In this document: positions 3,327-15,429 of the stretch, piece by piece
How positions within the stretch are numbered: the stretch's first letter is position 1
How the letters are laid out: every line of letters begins with the position of its first letter
Assembly: GCA_043823745.1 (NCBI GenBank)
Contig: JBDRAN010000056.1
Coordinates: 5,144-69,143 of the forward strand
DNA length: 64,000 nt
Direction: 5' to 3'
From: Candidatus Omnitrophota bacterium
GTDB taxonomy: Bacteria; Omnitrophota; Gorgyraeia; Duberdicusellales; 4484-171
Position numbers and translations under genes: made by a program
Notes under the pieces: model-generated
The model's database searches: none
The model's input: the letters and a program-made list of their open reading frames with translations, nothing else
Told to the model about the DNA's origin: nothing

Positions 3327-4598
3327 CTACAGCTTCTTATTGAGTTCCCTCACAAAATTCTTTATTTCCCAGAATTCTTTAAATGTATGTTGCTGGAAAG
3401 AGCCGAAGATAGAATTGTTATGAAGAAGCGGTTCGTTGAACTCCTTGCCGTAATGTTCAAAGAGCGGCGTATCCGGAACGGGTGAGAATTCTGCCAGGGA
3501 TACCTTCAAGCCCAGCGCGATCAGGAAGAGCACATCTTCTTTTAACCGGACCAGATCTTGTCCGGGATAACCTAAAAGTAAATATACACTTGCCTCTCCG
3601 TTTTTAAAGCCACCTTGTTTTAGGTGAGCTGCGCCTTTTATTACGTCATGATGATCTATTTTGTCTCCCCAAAGTTTTTGTAACTCTGGGTCAAGTGTCT
3701 CAAGGCCAAAATGAGGATTGGTAAAACCTGATGTTTTTAAGAGGGAGGCTATCTCATCGTCGAGAAAGCGCATATGGAGAGCATTCGGCGTATGGAAGCG
3801 AATGCCAAGCTTTGCCGCGGTGATGTTTCGCAATAAGGATTTCGCGTAATCAGATTCATAGAGAAATGCGTCATCGTAGAGCACATAGTCACGCACCCCT
3901 TTTCTGCAATAGCCGCTGATATAATCGATTATTGAGGCCTGCGGCATTTGCAAAAAGGTGCCCGGGAAAAGTTTTCTTATTGCGCAGAAGCTGCAATTAA
4001 ATGGACACCCCCAGGAAGTTCTTAAGACCACATAGTCAAGTGTCTGGTAAAATTCTTCATAGCGGGGTAGTGTTGTGTAGAGGTCCCGTGGTTGACAGGT
4101 AATTCCCAGGTACGTGAAGAATTCTTCTATCTGGTTGTTCGCAAAAACACGGTCATATAAGGTGTTATGCGCCGCGTGGTCATTGCAGAGCGTTGCGTAG
4201 GTGCCGCCCAAAAGTATTTTTGCCGCCGGAAATTTTTCTTTTACCAGCCGTGCCGCTTCAATGATGCCGGGATACCAATAGGTCATCGATGAGGTAATAA
4301 GAATATAGTCGGGGTTTTTGCCCTCAAGGGCAGCCTTAAAAACATCACGATTGATGCCGTATCGTTTATAATGGCGGGGGATTGTCTTAAAGATTCCAGG
4401 CTTTTCTACAATCACGCAAGCGTATTTGCCTCTGCCGAAGTCGCCGGCGCTGGTCTTTTTATCGAGACAGTCAATATAATCAACATGGATGCCCTGGTTC
4501 TTTAAATACTCAAGAATCACTAAAAAACCGTAGGGTTTCAGCCAAAAATCATAGGCGGCAAAGTCGTATATCCAGGGGTTTATGGCGAGTATATTCAC
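3327..4598 (-). CDS. B12-binding-domain radical SAM protein (probable GTG start).
   Basis: N-terminal cobalamin-binding Rossmann-like region (ILITSSMTYW...ILLGG) followed by WGCPFNCSFC (CxxxCxxC). Confidence 0.8.
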   Translation of the reverse strand: MNILAINPWIYDFAAYDFWLKPYGFLVILEYLKNQGIHVDYIDCLDKKTSAGDFGRGKYACVIVEKPGIFKTIPRHYKRYGINRDVFKAALEGKNPDYILITSSMTYWYPGIIEAARLVKEKFPAAKILLGGTYATLCNDHAAHNTLYDRVFANNQIEEFFTYLGITCQPRDLYTTLPRYEEFYQTLDYVVLRTSWGCPFNCSFCAIRKLFPGTFLQMPQASIIDYISGYCRKGVRDYVLYDDAFLYESDYAKSLLRNITAAKLGIRFHTPNALHMRFLDDEIASLLKTSGFTNPHFGLETLDPELQKLWGDKIDHHDVIKGAAHLKQGGFKNGEASVYLLLGYPGQDLVRLKEDVLFLIALGLKVSLAEFSPVPDTPLFEHYGKEFNEPLLHNNSIFGSFQQHTFKEFWEIKNFVRELNKKL

Positions 4599-4750
4599 TA
4601 AATCATTATAGCAGATGTGGTATAATAAAAAAGCGGATAGCGGTTAGCGAATAGCGAATAGTAAAGAATGTGTAATTTTTCAATTTTTTAACTAACCGCT
4701 ATACGGTGCGAAGCCTCCCCGGAGGGGACTCAACACTCTACGCTATTCAT

Positions 4751-9009: not shown

Positions 9010-9103
9010 TTAATGCAAACAGTAGGCCCTTTGGTGGCGTGGAAGACCATTGTTGAAACAGGAATGCTTTGGGCAGCGGTCAAATCTCAAGGGGTATAGA
9101 CCT

Positions 9104-9817
9104 ATGAAGCTCGGTGTAAACGTTGATCATGTCGCGACGCTGCGTCAGTCACGTGGAACGCTCTACCCTGATCCGGTTGTAGCTGCCATGCTCTGTGAGC
9201 ATGCGGGTTGCGATTCTGTTGTGGTCCATTTGCGTGAGGATCGCCGGCATATCCAGGATCGTGATGTCATGATGCTTGCGCGCGCTCTCACGGTTCCGAT
9301 TAATCTTGAAATGTCGGTTAATAAAAATATCGTGGACATTGCGGTTGCGGTCAAGCCGGCGCAGGCGACGCTGGTCCCTGAGCGCAGGCAGGAGTTAACG
9401 ACCGAAGGAGGCATTGATCTTATCATCCATTATAGAAAAGTAGCGAGTGCCGCTAGCCGCCTTAAGGCCGCCGGGATACAGGTAAGTTTATTTATTGATC
9501 CTGACCCTCGCCAAATTAAAAAGGCAAAGGAAATCGGCGCAGATTTACTTGAGCTTAATACCGGAAAATATTCTGAAGCGCACACGCCGCCCGCTGTTAG
9601 AAAAGAATTAAAGAAGATAAAAGATGCGGCGGGTCTGGCCAAGAAGCTTGGATTCTTTGTCGCGGCCGGCCACGGTATTGATTATGAGAATGTAAAAGCG
9701 ATCTTGAAAATTAAAGAGATCGGGGAGTTGAACATCGGTCACTCTATAATTTGCAGGGCAGTATTTGTGGGGATGGTTGCTGCGGTAGAGGAGATGCTAT
9801 CGTTGCTACAGAGGTAG
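9104..9817 (+). CDS. pdxJ: Pyridoxine 5'-phosphate synthase.
   Basis: KLGVNVDHVATLRQSRG...HLREDRRHI, with SD AAGGGG upstream of the ATG at 9104. Confidence 0.9.
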   Translation: MKLGVNVDHVATLRQSRGTLYPDPVVAAMLCEHAGCDSVVVHLREDRRHIQDRDVMMLARALTVPINLEMSVNKNIVDIAVAVKPAQATLVPERRQELTTEGGIDLIIHYRKVASAASRLKAAGIQVSLFIDPDPRQIKKAKEIGADLLELNTGKYSEAHTPPAVRKELKKIKDAAGLAKKLGFFVAAGHGIDYENVKAILKIKEIGELNIGHSIICRAVFVGMVAAVEEMLSLLQR

Positions 9818-9881
9818 AAGGCCACCGAATCACAAAGTCACAGGTGCCACGCCACACGCTACAAGCAAAGGGAGGTGAACG

Positions 9882-10361
9882 ATGGAGAAGAAAAAAGCAA
9901 TTAGTCTGGGTTTTGCCTTACTTCTTATTTTTGTGCTTATTGGTGTATTTATTCAAATAAGTATTTATGACTATATTGAGAAACAAAAAGAAGGGGATAA
10001 ACAACAAGTCGATTTAATTATTTCTGGAAAATTGCCTGAGAGTTTACGATGCGTTAAGGAGATAAAAATTAAAAATCAGGAATTATTAATTTCATTAGAC
10101 GATACTGCTTCTTTTAGCTATAGCGAGAGAATCTCGGGAAATCCAGTTGTTTTTAAGAGTAATGGTGAGTCACAATTACTCTATAGTTCATGCAGATACT
10201 CAAATAACGAAAGCTATTATAGAGAGAGCTTAAATTTAGTGTGGTTTGATGGGAGGAGTGCCAAATTTTTGACAACGGTAACGTATAGTGGGGATACAAA
10301 ACCAGTGGTTCATAAAAGAGAGTTCATAGTGAATGAACAATCTTTATCCGTCACAGAGTGA
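9882..10361 (+). CDS. Hypothetical secreted or membrane-anchored protein in an AT-rich insertion between pdxJ and acpS.
   Basis: Hydrophobic N-terminus and GC well below the flanks. Confidence 0.45.
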   Translation: MEKKKAISLGFALLLIFVLIGVFIQISIYDYIEKQKEGDKQQVDLIISGKLPESLRCVKEIKIKNQELLISLDDTASFSYSERISGNPVVFKSNGESQLLYSSCRYSNNESYYRESLNLVWFDGRSAKFLTTVTYSGDTKPVVHKREFIVNEQSLSVTE

Positions 10362-10514
10362 CGGAGTAGTTTAAATAATTGAGAACTTTAAAGAAATCTA
10401 AAAATATATAAAGTTCTCTGATTACACAGATTAAATATAGATTCCAGCGATTAAGAATATTAAAATCACTGTAATCATTTCATAATCCCTGTAATCAAAA
10501 GGTTTATAATTAAG

Positions 10515-10895
10515 ATGATAATCGGCATCGGCATCGACATGGTCAAAATCGAAAAAATCCAAAGCGCCATTGAGCGTTTGGGTGAGGCTTTCCTGGACCG
10601 CGTTTTTAACAAAGAAGAACTGGCGCCTATCGCCAAAGGTAAAATGTATTACCAGCGTCTGGCAGCGCGTTTCGCCGCTAAAGAAGCGGTCATAAAAGCG
10701 ATTTCGAAAGAAAAGCCGCTCGCTCTCAAAGACATCGTTATTTTAAATAAACCAAACGGCGCTCCGTATTGTAAGTTCAAGAAAAAAATGAATATTGAGA
10801 TTTTCCTTTCGATTACGCATCTTGAAGATTACGCGTCTGCCTGCGCGGTGGCCCAGAGAGAAACGCAGATTAGCGCAGAGGGAAGACGCAGATGA
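10515..10895 (+). CDS. acpS: Holo-[acyl-carrier-protein] synthase.
   Basis: MIIGIGIDMVKI...FAAKEAVIKA, 126 aa. Confidence 0.85.
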   Translation: MIIGIGIDMVKIEKIQSAIERLGEAFLDRVFNKEELAPIAKGKMYYQRLAARFAAKEAVIKAISKEKPLALKDIVILNKPNGAPYCKFKKKMNIEIFLSITHLEDYASACAVAQRETQISAEGRRR

Positions 10896-10908: not shown

Positions 10909-11766
10909 ATGAAGTTACCTACGCACTTATTTAAACGTAAGCCTGATACCCATAAAGGGGATTATGGCTATGTTTTGGTTATCGGCGGTTCACCGGGATT
11001 AACCGGCGCGGTGTGCTTATGTGCTAGTGCCGCCCTACGGATGGGTGCCGGTCTTGTGCGCGCGGCAGTACCGGGCTCGCTTACCGGCATTGTTGCGACA
11101 AAACTTACCGAAGTTATGACATTGTTGCTTCCTGAAATGCACCCGGGATATCTGTGTCCGGATGCGTTCGGTACAATAGAGCAGATGCTTTCTCGTGTCG
11201 ATGCTATCGCGCTTGGTTGCGGCGCTTCTTCCAATGAAGCTGCCCGGGTCTTAATGCTTAAAGTTATCAAAGAAGTCGATAAGCCTATTGTAGTTGATGC
11301 AGATGGTCTTAATGCTCTGTCTTCTGATACGTGTATTTTAGAGGCCCGTACAACAAAAAATCTCATCCTTACCCCTCATGCTCTTGAGTTTTCCCGGATT
11401 TCAGGGTATAGTATCGAGGATATAAAGAAGAATAGAAAAGCACTTGTCAAAGATTTCGCTCTTCGGTATAATCTAACCCTCGTTCTTAAGGGCCACCGGA
11501 CGCTGGTTAGTGATGGGAGAAAGCTCTTTGAAAATACGACCGGAAACCCCGGAATGGCAACGGCCGGAACAGGGGACGTATTAACCGGTATGATTGCGGG
11601 GCTTCTCGGTCAAGGGCTTATACCTTTTTGCGCGGCCCAGATCGGAGTATACCTGCATGGCTTAGCAAGCGATCTGGCCAGCCGCGAGAAAACCGAAATT
11701 TGTTTAATTGCTTCAGATATAATAGATTATTTACCAAAGGCCATAAAGAAAGCTAGTAGAGCGTAG
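10909..11766 (+). CDS. nnrD: ADP-dependent (S)-NAD(P)H-hydrate dehydratase (YjeF C-terminal domain).
   Basis: GDYGYVLVIGGSPGLTGA...GTGDVLTGMIAGLLGQG. Confidence 0.85.
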   Translation: MKLPTHLFKRKPDTHKGDYGYVLVIGGSPGLTGAVCLCASAALRMGAGLVRAAVPGSLTGIVATKLTEVMTLLLPEMHPGYLCPDAFGTIEQMLSRVDAIALGCGASSNEAARVLMLKVIKEVDKPIVVDADGLNALSSDTCILEARTTKNLILTPHALEFSRISGYSIEDIKKNRKALVKDFALRYNLTLVLKGHRTLVSDGRKLFENTTGNPGMATAGTGDVLTGMIAGLLGQGLIPFCAAQIGVYLHGLASDLASREKTEICLIASDIIDYLPKAIKKASRA

Positions 11767-12057
11767 GATAAAAGTTCATAGCTGATAGCTCATAAGCTCA
11801 TAGGAAGATTATTAGAATTTTCATTGATATATTCGCGGAAATTAGCGCTCTAAATTCGCGGTAATTCGCGAGTTGAGGAGGAGCTTTAGCGACGACGCTG
11901 GCGAATGAGTGAGCCGGCGGTATTGTTCTTTGTCTTTTTTTTACTTCGTTAGTTTCTCTCCGGGGTGACAACGAGCCGCGTTTGACATCACTGGTTGTGC
12001 TTACAGGCGAGTGCCATAAGGGGCGGAGCCCCTCTTGGGGAGGAGCGAAGCGACGAC

Positions 12058-12130
12058 GCTGGCGTAGCTCAGTTGGCAGAGCAGAGGTTTTGTAAACCTC
12101 AGGTTGGGGGTTCGATTCCTCTCGCCAGCT
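12058..12130 (+). tRNA. tRNA-Thr (anticodon UGU).
   Basis: Manual cloverleaf: acceptor GCTGGCG/CGCCAGC, D-arm GCTC..GAGC, anticodon arm GAGGT-TTTGTAA-ACCTC, T-loop TTCGATT. No encoded CCA. Confidence 0.8.
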
Positions 12131-12248
12131 TAATTTCAAAAACGAAGGACGCTCATCCACATACGTTCATTGGGACGTGGGACGTTCGTTTGCTGGCCGC
12201 TACGGGGTCGTTTTTATTTTCAATACGTCTATCTCACGGAATAATGAA

Positions 12249-12599
12249 ATGGAAATCTTAAAGAAATTATTCGAAATAGCGCTCATTCCCATTACTTATT
12301 TTGCTGGCGTGCAAAGAGGAAAATTTAATAAAAATAAAGAAAAGATAGTCTTGATTGCGCAGAATTACGTTAATCTTTTGCGACAACATAATTATGATGT
12401 ATATCAATACCCCGACGTTTTGCTTGCAGCGGGGATTCTTACTTTGTCTGAGATGAAAGATATTAACCAAGTAATAGATATTGTTGTAAGTAAATATGGA
12501 GTAGAGCACCCATTTAAAAACTATTCGGAAGTTTTAAAAAGTGACAATACTGTTTTAGACTTCTTTAAGAATTTGGTTAACAAATCAAGAGAAAATTAA
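12249..12599 (+). CDS. Hypothetical protein, first gene of the AT-rich island (a GTG at 12177 is an alternative start).
   Basis: ORF in a roughly 33% GC stretch immediately downstream of tRNA-Thr. Confidence 0.35.
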   Translation: MEILKKLFEIALIPITYFAGVQRGKFNKNKEKIVLIAQNYVNLLRQHNYDVYQYPDVLLAAGILTLSEMKDINQVIDIVVSKYGVEHPFKNYSEVLKSDNTVLDFFKNLVNKSREN

Positions 12600-12700
12600 C
12601 TTAAACCATAACTATATATTTTCTATTTTGGTCTGTTCGCGCGTGCTAATTTTGATTTATGAGGTTTATTGGAGATGCTGCATAACACATAAAAAGAAGA

Positions 12701-12940
12701 ATGAAAAAAGCTTTGTTGAATGAGCTAAAAATATTTGGTGTTTGGGTAGGAATATATTTAATACTAATGGTGATCCTTGTTTTTCTTGCTGTAATTAAAT
12801 TTCCATCAGAGCAATTTGTGAGAGGATTTTCCAGTATCTTGCCCATTGTTTTGATGCTATATTTACCGTATATTGTTATTAAGTGCGTAATCTTGCTTTG
12901 TAAATATTTGGCTAAAGGTCAAAATAAAAAGATATTATAA
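12701..12940 (+). CDS. Small membrane protein with two TM helices (hypothetical).
   Basis: 79-aa ORF with two hydrophobic helices, AT-rich. Confidence 0.35.
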   Translation: MKKALLNELKIFGVWVGIYLILMVILVFLAVIKFPSEQFVRGFSSILPIVLMLYLPYIVIKCVILLCKYLAKGQNKKIL

Positions 12941-12964
12941 GAATTCCATAGGTAAGCCAAAAAG

Positions 12965-13621
12965 ATGAATTTAACGGCAAAACTGAATCCTCAAGAAATT
13001 AGAGATTTATATTGGGAGAAAAAACATAGCGTGGAGGAGGTTGCAGAGAAATTAGGCATTTCTGTTTGGGCATTATATAATTTTATGAATAGAAATGGAA
13101 TCCCGAGGCGTTCTTTGACAGAGGCTAATTATATTGCTAATCGAGATAAACCACAATTTGCAATCAGAGACGATCTTAGCATTACAGAAGAAAAACTTAA
13201 AATAGCCGGTATTATGATGTATTGGGCTGAAGGAACTTTAAAAGGAAACTCGGTTGACTTTGTGAATAGTAATCCGGACATGGTAAGGATATTCCTAAAA
13301 TTCTTAAGAGCAATATGCGGGATAAAAGAGGAACGCTTAAGGGTCTATCTGTACGCGTATTCTTATCAAAGTATCGAAACGTTGAAACGCTATTGGGGTA
13401 AAGTAACAAATATTTCTTTGAGTCAATTTACTAAACCATACATCAGGGAAGGTAATTTGAATTTAAGTCAAAGAAAAATGCTTTATGGCTTAGTGCATAT
13501 TCGTTATAATGATAAACGTTTATTAAATCTGATTAAGGATTGGATAGCTGAGTATATAGAAGGGCAGGTTCCTGAGTGGTCAAAAGGGACAGACTGTGTA
13601 ATTAACGCAGCGCCCTGTTGA
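12965..13621 (+). CDS. Putative homing-endonuclease-like protein: N-terminal HTH plus a degenerate LAGLIDADG-like core (KIAGIMMYWAEGTL).
   Basis: HTH motif EIRDLYWEKKHSVEEVAEKLGISVWALYNFM. It is followed by a LAGLIDADG-like motif and an I-CreI-like secondary pattern. It ends 20 nt before the group I intron-like core. Confidence 0.45.
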   Translation: MNLTAKLNPQEIRDLYWEKKHSVEEVAEKLGISVWALYNFMNRNGIPRRSLTEANYIANRDKPQFAIRDDLSITEEKLKIAGIMMYWAEGTLKGNSVDFVNSNPDMVRIFLKFLRAICGIKEERLRVYLYAYSYQSIETLKRYWGKVTNISLSQFTKPYIREGNLNLSQRKMLYGLVHIRYNDKRLLNLIKDWIAEYIEGQVPEWSKGTDCVINAAPC

Positions 13622-13920
13622 AAAACAGGATGTAAAAGCGGGTGAATTCAGGGAAGCCCAGCACTAATTTAAAACTTTGAATTAGGTTAGTAAAATTAGT
13701 GCTGGGTAATCCTGAGCCAAGCTTTGGCATAACGCCAGAGAAGGTGCAGAGACTATTCCGTAAGGAAGTAGCTTCAGTTATTCTGGAGCGAAGCGCCCGC
13801 CGCCTAACGCCAGGTTATTAATGGCTATGGTGATGAGATAGTCCAAGCCTTAAGGTAACTTAAGGGACACTTGAAATCTGTTGCGCTTGCGCTTCGAGGG
13901 TTCAAATCCTTCCCTGCCCA
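13622..13920 (+). ncRNA. Group I intron-like ribozyme core (R element GGTGCAGAGACTATTCCG 13743-13760; S element AGATAGTCC 13836-13844; 14-bp hairpin 13657-13706). It runs into a tRNA-like 3' exon (T-arm GAGGG-TTCAAAT-CCTTC, acceptor 3' strand CCTGCCC, discriminator A at 13920).
   Basis: The P7 halves GACTA/TAGTC are complementary and sit in the classic R/S contexts. A sense-strand T-loop and acceptor follow. No 5' exon could be located. Confidence 0.4.
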
Positions 13921-14203
13921 TGTTTATTATTCTTAAGGTAGTGAAGGTTCTCCCGCCTCACAACAACGCCTAAAATTTTCTCTGAAAATTTTAGGCGTTC
14001 GGCGGGATCAATTCGACTACATGTTTTTTCTTCACCCTTGGCTTAAAAAAACATAAGTCTCATTGAAAATCCTTCCCTGCCCATGTTTTTTGATAAATTT
14101 GAAGAGCTATCAGCTCACAGCTTTCAGCCCTCAGCTTAAAGGATAAATTTATTTATGCTGATAGCTGAAGACTGATAGCTGAGAGCTGACATTTTTTTGA
14201 CTT

Positions 14204-14274
14204 GCGGGCGTAGTTCAATGGCAGAACACTAGCCTTCCAAGCTGGATATGTCGGTTCGATCCCGATCGCCCGCT
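14204..14274 (+). tRNA. tRNA-Gly (anticodon UCC).
   Basis: Acceptor GCGGGCG/CGCCCGC, anticodon loop CTTCCAA, T-loop TTCGATC. Confidence 0.85.
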
Positions 14275-14333
14275 TATAATGAGACTGTGATTTTTTAAGC
14301 CGTAGGTGAAGAAAAATCACATAGTCGAATTAT

Positions 14334-14408
14334 CCCCGTTTTTGCACCCGATAGATTCCCTCGCAATTTCTTGAAATTGCGAAAAGATCAATGGAGGCAA
14401 AAACGGGG
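14334..14408 (+). ncRNA. Copy A of a conserved hairpin element: outer stem CCCCGTTTTTGC/GCAAAAACGGGG, inner hairpin CGCAATTTC-tt-GAAATTGCG. It lies 17 nt upstream of the gpsA ATG.
   Basis: One of three copies (A, B, C). The outer stem covaries in copy C. Confidence 0.5.
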
Positions 14409-14424
14409 TCAATTCGTGTTAACA

Positions 14425-15429
14425 ATGAAAGAAAAAGTATCTATCTTAGGTGCAGGCGGTTGGGGGACGACGCTTGCGGTTGTTTTAGCGCAAAAAAAAG
14501 ACTTGGATGTCACCCTGTGGTCACCGTTTAAGGATCACGTTGATGAAATTAAAAGGGATCGTCAAAACAAGATTTTTCTTCCCGGAGTAGACATTCCGCC
14601 TTCCCTGAGTGTAACCGCCGATCTGCCGGCTGCATTGGTTGTGCCTGTTCTCATCGTTGCAATTCCTGTCGAATATTTGCGTCAGACACTCCAGAAAATA
14701 AAGCGCGTGCACGTTTCTGTTAAGGGAAAAATTTTTGTAAGCGTTATTAAGGGTATCGAAATTAAAAATTTAGTTCGTCCCAGCCAAATTCTAGCTGGGG
14801 AGCTGGGAATTTCTTTAAAACAAATTGCAGTACTTTCCGGCCCCACTATCGCTAAGGAAGTTGCTTCCGGTATCCCCTCGGTTGCAACAGTCGCGTCGCA
14901 CGTTACGGCGTATGCCGCCCGTATTCAGAAATTGTTCTCCGGCACAACGCTTCGCGTGTATACTCACAATGATGTTGTCGGCATTGAGACTGCAGGAGCG
15001 CTTAAGAATATTATTGCCATTGCCTGCGGCATCTCCGACGGATTAGGATTCGGAACCAATACTAAGTCAGCGCTTATATGCAGAGGCTTGAAGGAAATGA
15101 TACGGTTTGCCTCCGCCTTTAAGATCAAGCCTCCCGCGTTCCTGGGTATTAGCGGTATCGGCGATTTATGCACAACATGTTTTTCTTCCGCTTCGCGCAA
15201 TCGTTCACTGGGAGAAGCAATCGGCCGCGGCGCGGCACTTGCCGAAGTCTTAGGCAGCATGAAAACGGTCGCTGAGGGTGTCGGTACGACAAAAGCGGTA
15301 TACCGTTTAAGCAAAAAATATAGTATTGATATGCCCATTACCAGAGAAATATACGCGGTTCTCTATAACAAAAAAACGCCTCAGAAAGCGGTAAAAGATT
15401 TAATGGCTCGCCCCTTGAAGGCGGAATGA
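14425..15429 (+). CDS. gpsA: NAD(P)H-dependent glycerol-3-phosphate dehydrogenase.
   Basis: VSILGAGGWGTTLAVVLA Rossmann motif, 334 aa. The upstream extension of the track ORF lies inside element A. Confidence 0.9.
   Translation: MKEKVSILGAGGWGTTLAVVLAQKKDLDVTLWSPFKDHVDEIKRDRQNKIFLPGVDIPPSLSVTADLPAALVVPVLIVAIPVEYLRQTLQKIKRVHVSVKGKIFVSVIKGIEIKNLVRPSQILAGELGISLKQIAVLSGPTIAKEVASGIPSVATVASHVTAYAARIQKLFSGTTLRVYTHNDVVGIETAGALKNIIAIACGISDGLGFGTNTKSALICRGLKEMIRFASAFKIKPPAFLGISGIGDLCTTCFSSASRNRSLGEAIGRGAALAEVLGSMKTVAEGVGTTKAVYRLSKKYSIDMPITREIYAVLYNKKTPQKAVKDLMARPLKAE

Follow-up and report, generated by a model that had tools for sequence, protein, structure and literature searches.

The window analysed here is a stretch of 64,000 nucleotides (nt) from a Candidatus Omnitrophota metagenome-assembled genome (MAG), and the locus of interest within it is a Thr(UGU)-Tyr(GUA)-Gly(UCC) tRNA operon that was delineated with ARAGORN and Rfam (Table 1). 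Three open reading frames (ORFs), designated ORF1, ORF2 and ORF3, follow tRNA-Thr on the forward strand, and the last of them runs into a tRNA-Tyr gene that is itself interrupted by a group I intron. The original prediction had described the three ORFs as an AT-rich island beside tRNA-Thr. All three do exist on that strand, the GC content is 29-38% at 12200-13700 as opposed to about 43-55% in both flanks (300-nt windows), and, given that tRNA-Thr occupies 12058-12130, the GTG start codon of ORF1 does lie 47 nt downstream of it. The end assigned to the island, position 13621, is the end of the ORF3 stop codon, and it falls inside the intron of a split tRNA-Tyr gene that had gone unseen. The best explanation of the region is a tRNA operon that houses two linked selfish elements, ORF3 and the intron, together with one unrelated insert that holds ORF1 and ORF2.

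Table 1. Features of the tRNA operon and its surroundings, in window coordinates
Feature	Position	Strand	Basis or remark
Exact 16-mer AGCGACGACGCTGGCG, orphan copy upstream of tRNA-Thr	11888..11903	+	Repeat family D6; blastn self-match
tRNA-Thr(UGU), operon gene 1	12058..12130	+	ARAGORN; Rfam tRNA, 67.5 bits
AT-rich insert, 32% GC, holding ORF1 and ORF2	12131..12964	+	Absent from relatives
ORF1	12177-12599 (140 aa from GTG); 12249-12599 (116 aa from ATG)	+	ORF list
ORF2, 79 aa, two hydrophobic segments	12701-12940	+	ORF list
Possible decayed orphan tRNA-Tyr 5' half, TTCCATAGGTAAGCCAAAAAG	12943..12961	+	By eye only, weak; just before the ORF3 ATG
ORF3, 218 aa, proposed free-standing homing-endonuclease-like gene	12965..13621	+	ORF list, homologues, alignments
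tRNA-Tyr(GUA) 5' exon, 36 nt, ending ...CAGACTGT after the second anticodon base	13562..13597	+	ARAGORN on spliced sequence
Group I intron, 276 nt, ORF-less	13598..13873	+	Rfam RF00028; ARAGORN intron mode i(37,276)
tRNA-Tyr(GUA) 3' exon, 47 nt, long variable arm, CCA not encoded	13874..13920	+	ARAGORN; intron-free relatives
25-nt direct repeat, copy 1: last 17 nt of tRNA-Tyr and 8 nt of downstream flank	13904..13928	+	Family D2, 96% identity
25-nt direct repeat, copy 2: orphan tRNA-Tyr 3' end	14067-14091		163-nt spacing from copy 1
tRNA-Gly(UCC), operon gene 3	14204..14274	+	ARAGORN, Rfam

A group I intron in the anticodon loop of tRNA-Tyr

The tRNA-Tyr(GUA) gene is split after the second base of its anticodon by a 276-nt group I intron that contains no ORF. 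ARAGORN detects this tRNA only in the spliced sequence or in intron mode, and removal of 13598-13873 produces a canonical class II tRNA-Tyr that has the anticodon GUA and a long variable arm; intron-free relatives carry a sequence identical to this predicted spliced product. The interrupting sequence matches the Rfam family RF00028 over the full length of the model (positions 1-253, about 13588-13865) with 87.7 bits at a threshold of 50 (expectation value, E, 7e-22), and Rfam confirms group I introns in 17 further related loci at 75-99 bits. One insertion site is common to 35 of 35 tRNA-Tyr introns, which range from 181 to 373 nt: the 5' exon ends ...CAGACTGT, the intron ends ...TG and the 3' exon begins AAATCTG, so that the terminal base of the intron in the window is G. 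The P1 helix pairs CUGU of the exon with GCAG of the intron and places a U.G pair at the 5' splice site, a pair that is invariant in 34 of 34 introns. RNAalifold analysis of the 34-intron alignment returns 61 consensus pairs, of which 36 show compensatory changes, and the helices backed by covariation correspond by position to P2-P6, P8 and P9. The intron is predicted to be self-splicing and would remove itself to yield a normal tRNA-Tyr. Four other inserts that ARAGORN called as introns (in tRNA-Arg of loci L054 and L128, in tRNA-Ile of L156, and a 373-nt insert in L041) scored below the Rfam gathering threshold and were rejected.

Bacterial group I introns are known from tRNA-Leu(UAA) and tRNA-fMet of cyanobacteria and from tRNA-Ile(CAU) in Azoarcus, Acidovorax and Burkholderia (PMC8450103, PMC3984707). 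The tRNA-Tyr intron is like these in being small and predicted to self-splice, in occupying the anticodon loop, in being missed by default finders and in having an RF00028 core, but it differs from them in its host gene, tRNA-Tyr(GUA), and in the phyla that carry it, Omnitrophota and Patescibacteria. There is a general remark that some tRNAs of the candidate phyla radiation carry group I introns (PMC8172020), and the searchable literature yielded no account of a group I intron in a bacterial tRNA-Tyr gene. Because the gene carries such an intron, default tRNA finders miss tRNA-Tyr in many Omnitrophota and some Patescibacteria genomes, and these genomes wrongly appear to be without it.

ORF3 and its relatives at tRNA genes

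ORF3 begins upstream of tRNA-Tyr and reads through the whole 5' exon, with codons 200-211 corresponding to the exon and codon 200 beginning at the first base of the tRNA. Its stop codon (13619-13621) lies 24 nt inside the intron, within P1, and ORF3 is thus not an intron-borne gene, a possibility raised earlier. This stop codon is also 57 nt downstream of the predicted RNase P site (13561/13562), and as a consequence 5' processing or splicing of the pre-tRNA would deprive the ORF3 mRNA of its stop codon, and expression of the protein could be limited in this way. Stop codons of homologues are found from about 60 nt before the tRNA start to as far as 222 nt into the tRNA or intron, mostly a few nt from the start or inside, and the variable C-terminal tails of these proteins (GQVPEWSKGTDC, WAGTQVAKGDRL and others) are the tRNA exon translated in different reading frames.

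A hypothetical protein of a Candidatus Omnitrophota MAG has 100% identity to the product of ORF3, which belongs to a large family, with 623 homologues at E<=1e-3, none of them named, and relatives encoded in more than 565 species genomes when one genome per species is scanned. A profile search recovers 118 clusters (50% identity) at E<=1e-30 and 1775 at E<=1e-10. The survey of adjoining tRNA genes given next refers to the best 80 of the more than 565 genomes, in which Omnitrophota proteins are 55-67% and Patescibacteria proteins 41-52% identical to ORF3; identity between the phyla is 45-65%. The closest relative is locus L081, with an ORF3 that is 89% identical and a tRNA-Thr(UGU) that is 100% identical to that of the window. 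In 80 of 80 loci the 3' end of the ORF adjoins the 5' end of a tRNA gene or overlaps it. In 77 loci the distance is no more than about 15 nt; the ORF ends 58 nt upstream in L076 and 43 nt upstream in L079, while the L029 contig breaks off at the tRNA-Tyr 5' exon, which is seen only as the translated tail of the ORF. Most loci have Tyr(GUA) as the adjoining tRNA, and 7 have Thr. A gene order of acpS-carbK-Thr-ORF-Tyr-Gly extends throughout the Omnitrophota, alongside an ORF-free version (acpS-carbK-Thr-Tyr-Gly...gpsA...Pro-PilZ-hom), and in typical Omnitrophota loci the ORF begins 5-20 nt after tRNA-Thr and thus fills the Thr-Tyr spacer exactly. Two such loci, L012 and L013, are on different contigs of one MAG (JAZDFW01), each with the order Thr-ORF-Tyr(intron)-Gly and with ORF3 proteins 56% and 60% identical to that of the window, which means that two strains are mixed in the bin or else that the locus has been duplicated. 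Family members in L145 (603-1160) and L077 are located upstream of tRNA-Thr(UGU) and not of tRNA-Tyr.

Base composition is a property of the family as a whole. In 78 of 81 loci the ORF3 homologue is about 10 GC points below its flanks, in hosts that range from 29 to 67% GC. AT-richness at this locus is thus no sign of recent arrival, and a recent horizontal transfer of the whole island is rejected as a reading of it; the low GC of ORF3 is conserved family-wide, which goes part of the way to the clade-wide composition that the original prediction had named as evidence against an acquired cassette.

Distant homologues are also found in viruses. Ten, located on IMG/VR contigs of 11-498 kb, are 25-33% identical and retain the motifs GCMLYWAEG, F.NSD and YG, and all ten are inside phage tRNA arrays. 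For example, the ORF in L202 stops 2 nt before tRNA-Cys and the ORF in L203 is within an array of 24 tRNAs. Duplicate adjacent tRNAs occur beside the ORF in several jumbo-phage arrays (two tRNA-Cys in L202, two tRNA-Asn in L204 and two tRNA-Glu in L205), and such duplicates in the phage set (L202-L211) recall the orphan tRNA copies of the cellular loci described below.

The ORF3 protein consists of an N-terminal helix-turn-helix (HTH) region at residues ~9-58 and a conserved alpha/beta domain of ~140 residues at ~70-200. The HTH region gives weak Pfam HTH matches and also matches DNA-binding modules of phage HNH and homing endonucleases (phrog_8446, E 1.3e-8). Residues E89, G90, N101, H178, R180, Y181 and D183 are invariant in an alignment of Omnitrophota and Patescibacteria members. 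Two AlphaFold models have mean predicted local distance difference test (pLDDT) values of 83 and 91, and the second of these, a model of the domain (pLDDT 90.7; predicted template modelling score, pTM, 0.85), has the topology alpha-(short beta hairpin)-alpha-beta-alpha-beta-beta-alpha. The ratio of nonsynonymous to synonymous divergence (dN/dS) between ORF3 and its L081 counterpart is 0.12, and the family is under purifying selection. PADLOC returned nothing for ORF3, and a literature search found nothing specific on this protein family.

The designation of ORF3 as an HTH/LAGLIDADG-like protein was borne out for the HTH part, while no profile or fold search backed the LAGLIDADG part. No LAGLIDADG profile was matched by ORF3 at E<=1, none was among the top families at E<=10 for 28 members, and none was found in 16 further relatives; an hhalign comparison with I-CreI, for which an approximate query sequence was used, gave a probability of 0.09. 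There is a loose topological resemblance to the alpha-beta-beta-alpha-beta-beta-alpha fold of LAGLIDADG enzymes and there are a few weak matches, including the intein homing-endonuclease domain 7qss at Foldseek rank 40 (E 0.18, TM score 0.40) and four phage models labelled LAGLIDADG among weak BFVD matches (E 0.013-0.38). Additionally, the invariant E-G that closes the first helix is similar to the last part of the LAGLIDADG motif, though the spacing differs. Membership of ORF3 in the LAGLIDADG family is not supported.

Horizontal exchange of ORF3 with the split tRNA gene

Comparison of related loci establishes that ORF3 is patchy among close relatives and that it has moved horizontally in one block with the split tRNA-Tyr gene. 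For loci lacking the ORF, metagenome contigs were pattern-scanned for Thr-Tyr junctions no more than 31 nt apart, which gave 120 loci, about 47 of them with Omnitrophota synteny and no ORF. The syntenic Omnitrophota loci comprise 33 with both ORF and intron, 7 with the ORF alone, 8 with the intron alone and 39 with neither, an association with an odds ratio of 23 and a Fisher p of 6e-10, uncorrected for phylogeny. All four states are interspersed inside clusters of at least 70% carbK identity. In two mixed low-GC clusters the ORF-bearing loci are 10 with and 0 without the intron, and the ORF-free loci are 8 with and 21 without it (8/29). The sister-genome comparison and protein searches that had been proposed for the three ORFs divide them, ORF3 belonging to a large and patchy family and ORF1 and ORF2 having no homologues.

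The strongest evidence for mobility is synonymous divergence. Between the window and L081 the proportion of synonymous differences (pS) in ORF3 is 0.36, with a synonymous divergence (dS) of 0.50, as compared with saturation in acpS, carbK and gpsA (pS 0.73-0.83). The pairs L008/L010 and L020/L021 show the same pattern, and in three pairs ORF3 dS values of 0.33-0.70 stand against flanks of 1.1 to saturated. Overall, synonymous divergence in the block of ORF3 and tRNA-Tyr is about five-fold below that of its flanks. L014 presents the reverse, with an ORF3 far more divergent than the host distance predicts. An ORF3 dS that is three to seven times below the flanks in three pairs and above the flanks elsewhere indicates horizontal replacement. 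The block of high identity shared by the window and L081 (12961-13931) is exactly ORF3 plus the split tRNA-Tyr gene. Decay is apparent in L036, where the homologue (4013-4700) has an in-frame stop at the invariant Y86 of YWAEG beside an intron-containing tRNA-Tyr and is likely a pseudogene, with the reservation that its contig includes masked runs of N. The overall picture is one of long-term residence with recurrent exchange and loss.

A candidate target for such exchange is the anticodon stem-loop of tRNA-Tyr. The sequence CAGACTGTAAATCTG (NCAGA-CTGTAAA-TCTGN) is kept in 37 of 39 tRNA-Tyr genes that have neither ORF nor intron (an example of an intact gene is GGGACAGACTGTAAATCTGTTGC), and it is altered, in stem or loop, in 7 of 7 loci with the ORF but no intron (p 7e-7). 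Intron-bearing tRNA-Tyr genes have the consensus stem-loop sequence, split after CTGT. Consequently, the stem-loop is either split or mutated in all ORF-bearing Omnitrophota loci. This distribution is expected if the ORF product cuts the anticodon DNA and the intron or a mutation confers immunity. Our interpretation, to which we assign a probability of roughly 55%, is that ORF3 is a free-standing homing-endonuclease-like gene of a new protein family that is paired with an ORF-less intron in a form of collaborative homing. ORF3 would be a site-specific DNA endonuclease in which the HTH contributes to DNA binding and the C-terminal domain is responsible for cleavage, and its target would be the intact anticodon stem-loop DNA (CAGACTGT followed by AAATCTG), which is also the intron insertion site. 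Hosts bearing ORF3 would be immune because their target is interrupted by the intron or, in a minority of cases, mutated. In a naive genome the break would be repaired from a donor that has both ORF3 and intron, with the conserved flanking tRNA sequences presumably serving as homology arms so that gene and intron are copied together. Exact copies of the locus's own tRNA-Tyr 5' end, of 36, 26 and 25 nt, are located directly before the ORF start in L033, L007 and L081, respectively, the L033 copy terminating exactly at the splice site, and such orphan fragments may be scars of imprecise repair. Nuclease activity, target site and the role of the intron in immunity are deduced here from comparative sequence patterns.

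A number of observations weigh against this interpretation. Sequence searches of Pfam, NCBIfam, PHROG and PDB gave no match to the C-terminal domain in 45 members, only HTH families match the ORF3 family in profile searches and no recognised catalytic motif emerged from them, and Foldseek searches of PDB and BFVD with the two models, including that of pLDDT 91, gave no significant match (best in PDB, OmpA-like proteins with E 3e-3 and TM score 0.4). A tblastn search of 50,697 GenBank phage records with ORF3 also gave no match. The association statistics ignore phylogeny and compare two sets of loci that were sampled by different rules, and the 36 nt that separate ORF and intron mean that physical linkage alone could explain part of their co-occurrence. 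ORF3 identity correlates moderately with host carbK identity (Spearman 0.50), which indicates that much of its inheritance is vertical. As for the target, five of the seven loci with the ORF and no intron are high in GC (61-64%), and L142, the only high-GC locus without the ORF, also has a deviant stem, while L076 from the Patescibacteria has an intact ORF beside an intron-free tRNA-Tyr with the consensus stem. The L145 homologue, located upstream of tRNA-Thr, has lost the HxRY motif next to a tRNA-Tyr with a C32-to-T change in the anticodon loop, and it is thus weak evidence.

Several other explanations of ORF3 account for part of these data. One is that ORF3 is a maturase, a cofactor for folding of the tRNA-Tyr intron during splicing as opposed to a DNA endonuclease. 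This would fit with the presence of the intron in 33 of 40 ORF-bearing but only 8 of 47 ORF-free Omnitrophota loci, with purifying selection (dN/dS about 0.1) and with an ORF that is co-oriented with the pre-tRNA and overlaps it. However, most Patescibacteria homologues are well conserved beside an intron-free tRNA-Tyr or tRNA-Thr, 8 loci have an intron without the ORF, and the N-terminal HTH is like the DNA-binding modules of phage endonucleases. The location of 10 of 10 viral homologues in phage tRNA arrays argues against a maturase and likewise against a regulator specific to this operon; Rfam found no group I intron in L202 and L203, and one unverified intron-like tRNA in L203 is the sole such ARAGORN call among the viral loci. 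A maturase would also leave unexplained the mutated anticodon stems of loci that have the ORF but no intron. We consider it improbable. Somewhat less improbable, but still unlikely, is that ORF3 serves the tRNA operon as a DNA-binding regulator or housekeeping factor, inherited vertically, often lost, and linked to the intron by shared ancestry and 36-nt proximity. The HTH domain, the phylum-wide synteny, the moderate correlation of ORF3 with carbK identity and the 45-65% identity between phyla are all compatible with such a factor. Against it stand the synonymous divergence of ORF3, well below the flanks in three independent pairs and above them in others, its variable presence inside clusters of at least 70% carbK identity, and a composition that is consistently 10 GC points below that of the host. 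The family also occupies different spacers (Thr-Tyr, Tyr-Thr and upstream of Thr) as well as phage tRNA arrays, and orphan exon copies flank the ORF.

Those orphan copies, direct repeats of 25-36 nt from the tRNA-Tyr 5' end on either side of the ORF in L033, L007 and L081, would also be produced by a very small site-specific recombinase or integrase whose element enters the 5' half of a tRNA gene carrying its own copy of that half, the orphan and functional copies being the left and right attachment sites (attL/attR). Weak matches to HTH_7 (the resolvase HTH) and to transposase HTHs, and the constant position at tRNA 5' ends, point in the same direction. Neither Pfam nor Foldseek gives a match to a serine recombinase, tyrosine recombinase or transposase catalytic domain, however, and most loci have no upstream repeat, with only 5-20 nt from tRNA-Thr to the ORF start. 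In addition, the block exchanged between the window and L081 includes the whole tRNA-Tyr and its intron and not the ORF alone, and the association of ORF and intron would be unexplained; we judge a recombinase to be doubtful, about as much so as a maturase. The least probable explanation, and in our estimation a very remote one, is that of the original prediction, considered here in the form of one recently acquired cassette of the three ORFs beside tRNA-Thr, for example a defence or addiction module. Its attractions are the uniformly low GC over 12177-13621, the common strand, the adjacent tRNA and a faint PADLOC match of ORF2 to 2TM-TIR (E 0.033). However, 81 other loci, that of the closest relative among them, have ORF3 without ORF1 or ORF2, so that conservation is confined to ORF3, and these comparative data already contradict the cassette; searches with PADLOC, Pfam and PHROG gave no significant matches, there is no integrase, and the low GC of ORF3 is, as noted, a family trait. 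A defence or addiction module is therefore not upheld, and what survives of the cassette is a horizontally exchanged, intron-associated ORF3 without its two orphan neighbours.

To our knowledge, collaborative homing has been documented only in phages. Described cases are F-CphI with the ORF-less psbA group I intron of cyanophage S-PM2 (PMC3984707, PMC2988022, PMC6083498) and MobE with the nrd intron of phage Aeh1 (PMC3984707, PMC2988022). A homing endonuclease encoded by ORF3 would be like F-CphI and MobE in having a target that coincides with the intron insertion site, in deriving immunity from the intron and in being co-inherited with it. In contrast to F-CphI and MobE, ORF3 resides in a cellular chromosome and not a phage, its proposed target is a tRNA gene and not a protein-coding gene, and it overlaps the 5' exon and ends in the intron; it also has no HNH or Endo VII (DHHRN) motif, cleavage being predicted from sequence patterns. 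T4 SegB, a free-standing GIY-YIG homing endonuclease between tRNA-Arg and tRNA-Ile of the T4 tRNA cluster (PMC2988022), provides a second parallel. ORF3 shares with SegB a free-standing position between tRNA genes and, as proposed, the use of a conserved tRNA region as both target and homology, and the viral relatives of ORF3 share its setting in phage tRNA arrays. The two differ in protein family, ORF3 having no GIY-YIG motif, in that SegB has no intron association, and in that the ORF3 family is mainly cellular and present in hundreds of genomes. I-Ssp6803I resembles the proposed ORF3 system as an endonuclease aimed at anticodon-region DNA of a bacterial tRNA with a group I intron in the anticodon loop, but it is encoded within the intron of tRNA-fMet, whereas ORF3 is outside the intron and associated with tRNA-Tyr. 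I-Ssp6803I is a PD-(D/E)XK enzyme, and Foldseek gave no PD-(D/E)XK fold match for the ORF3 model.

A broader proposal combines these elements, and we advance it tentatively, at a little under even odds. In it the ORF3 family comprises unrecognised homing endonucleases with a new catalytic fold (an HTH followed by 'YWAEG ... HxRYxD') that would be tRNA-gene specialists in Omnitrophota, Patescibacteria and jumbo phages, would engage in chromosomal collaborative homing with an undescribed tRNA-Tyr intron in the Omnitrophota, and would have their expression tied to processing of tRNA precursors. If ORF3 does cut DNA, then its roughly 118 clusters (50% identity, E<=1e-30) would make up a new family of nucleases whose target is long, conserved and predictable, and this would be of interest for enzymology and possibly as a tool. 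All four states of ORF and intron, the target-site variants and the putative repair scars are kept across dozens of bacterial lineages and constitute a natural series on the origin of mobile introns. The family furthermore links two phyla of ultra-small cells with the tRNA arrays of jumbo phages, which hints at routes of gene flow.

Lineage-specific inserts and repeats around the operon

ORF1 and ORF2 occupy a later, lineage-specific AT-rich insertion outside the conserved element. Searches with tblastn found no homologue of either in 81 related loci, and in the nearest relative, L081, both are absent and 236 unrelated nt fill the same spot. Among 5.8 billion proteins ORF1 matches only itself and ORF2, which is not a called gene in that collection, matches nothing; neither ORF has an NCBIfam match, and PADLOC returned nothing for ORF1. 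The two longest ORFs in 12131-12964 exceed those of 1000 dinucleotide shuffles (P 0.001 and 0.007), which suggests that at least ORF1 is probably coding. A second AT-rich patch (9800-10505, 31-39% GC) is present between pdxJ (9050-9817) and acpS (10515-10895) and holds a 159-aa ORF (9882-10361) with an N-terminal hydrophobic segment and no Pfam match. As pdxJ and acpS are only about 100 nt apart in L081, this patch is another lineage-specific insertion like that of ORF1 and ORF2.

The earlier claim of a past rearrangement at tRNA-Thr is supported, as duplicated tRNA ends at this locus do point to rearrangements at tRNA genes. The duplication that had been reported upstream of tRNA-Thr has an exact core of 16 nt, whose second copy (12049-12064) consists of 9 nt of leader and the first 7 nt of the tRNA. 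The chance expectation for such a 16-nt repeat in 2.7 kb is about 0.001 by simple arithmetic. Downstream, the 25-nt repeat pair of the tRNA-Tyr 3' end encloses 138 nt of non-coding DNA with a perfect 16-bp hairpin (13965-13999), and the orphan 3' end is perhaps the right-hand scar of a block insertion. A tRNA-integrated genomic island was considered and rejected, as there is no integrase among the ORFs of the region (ORF list, Pfam) and this repeat bounds only non-coding DNA.

Additional repeats surround the tRNA cluster. L081 has an element of ~110 nt in two copies that are 84% identical (2079-2189 and 3337-3448) and that precede its orphan tRNA-Tyr fragment and tRNA-Gly; this element, possibly a promoter or leader module that has been repeated, is absent from the window. 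A promoter and terminator scan of 11700-14450 gave counts no higher than in shuffled sequence and is uninformative. A 51-nt inverted repeat of 80% complementarity (14003-14053 and 14288-14338) surrounds tRNA-Gly and the orphan tRNA-Tyr 3' end and could form a long processing stem around tRNA-Gly. Finally, runs of heptamer-like repeats (AGCTGAT, AGCTCAT, AGCTGAG) are found on both sides of the tRNA cluster, at 11766-11800 and 14100-14195, and these are in part inverted repeats of each other (families D1, I2 and I5).

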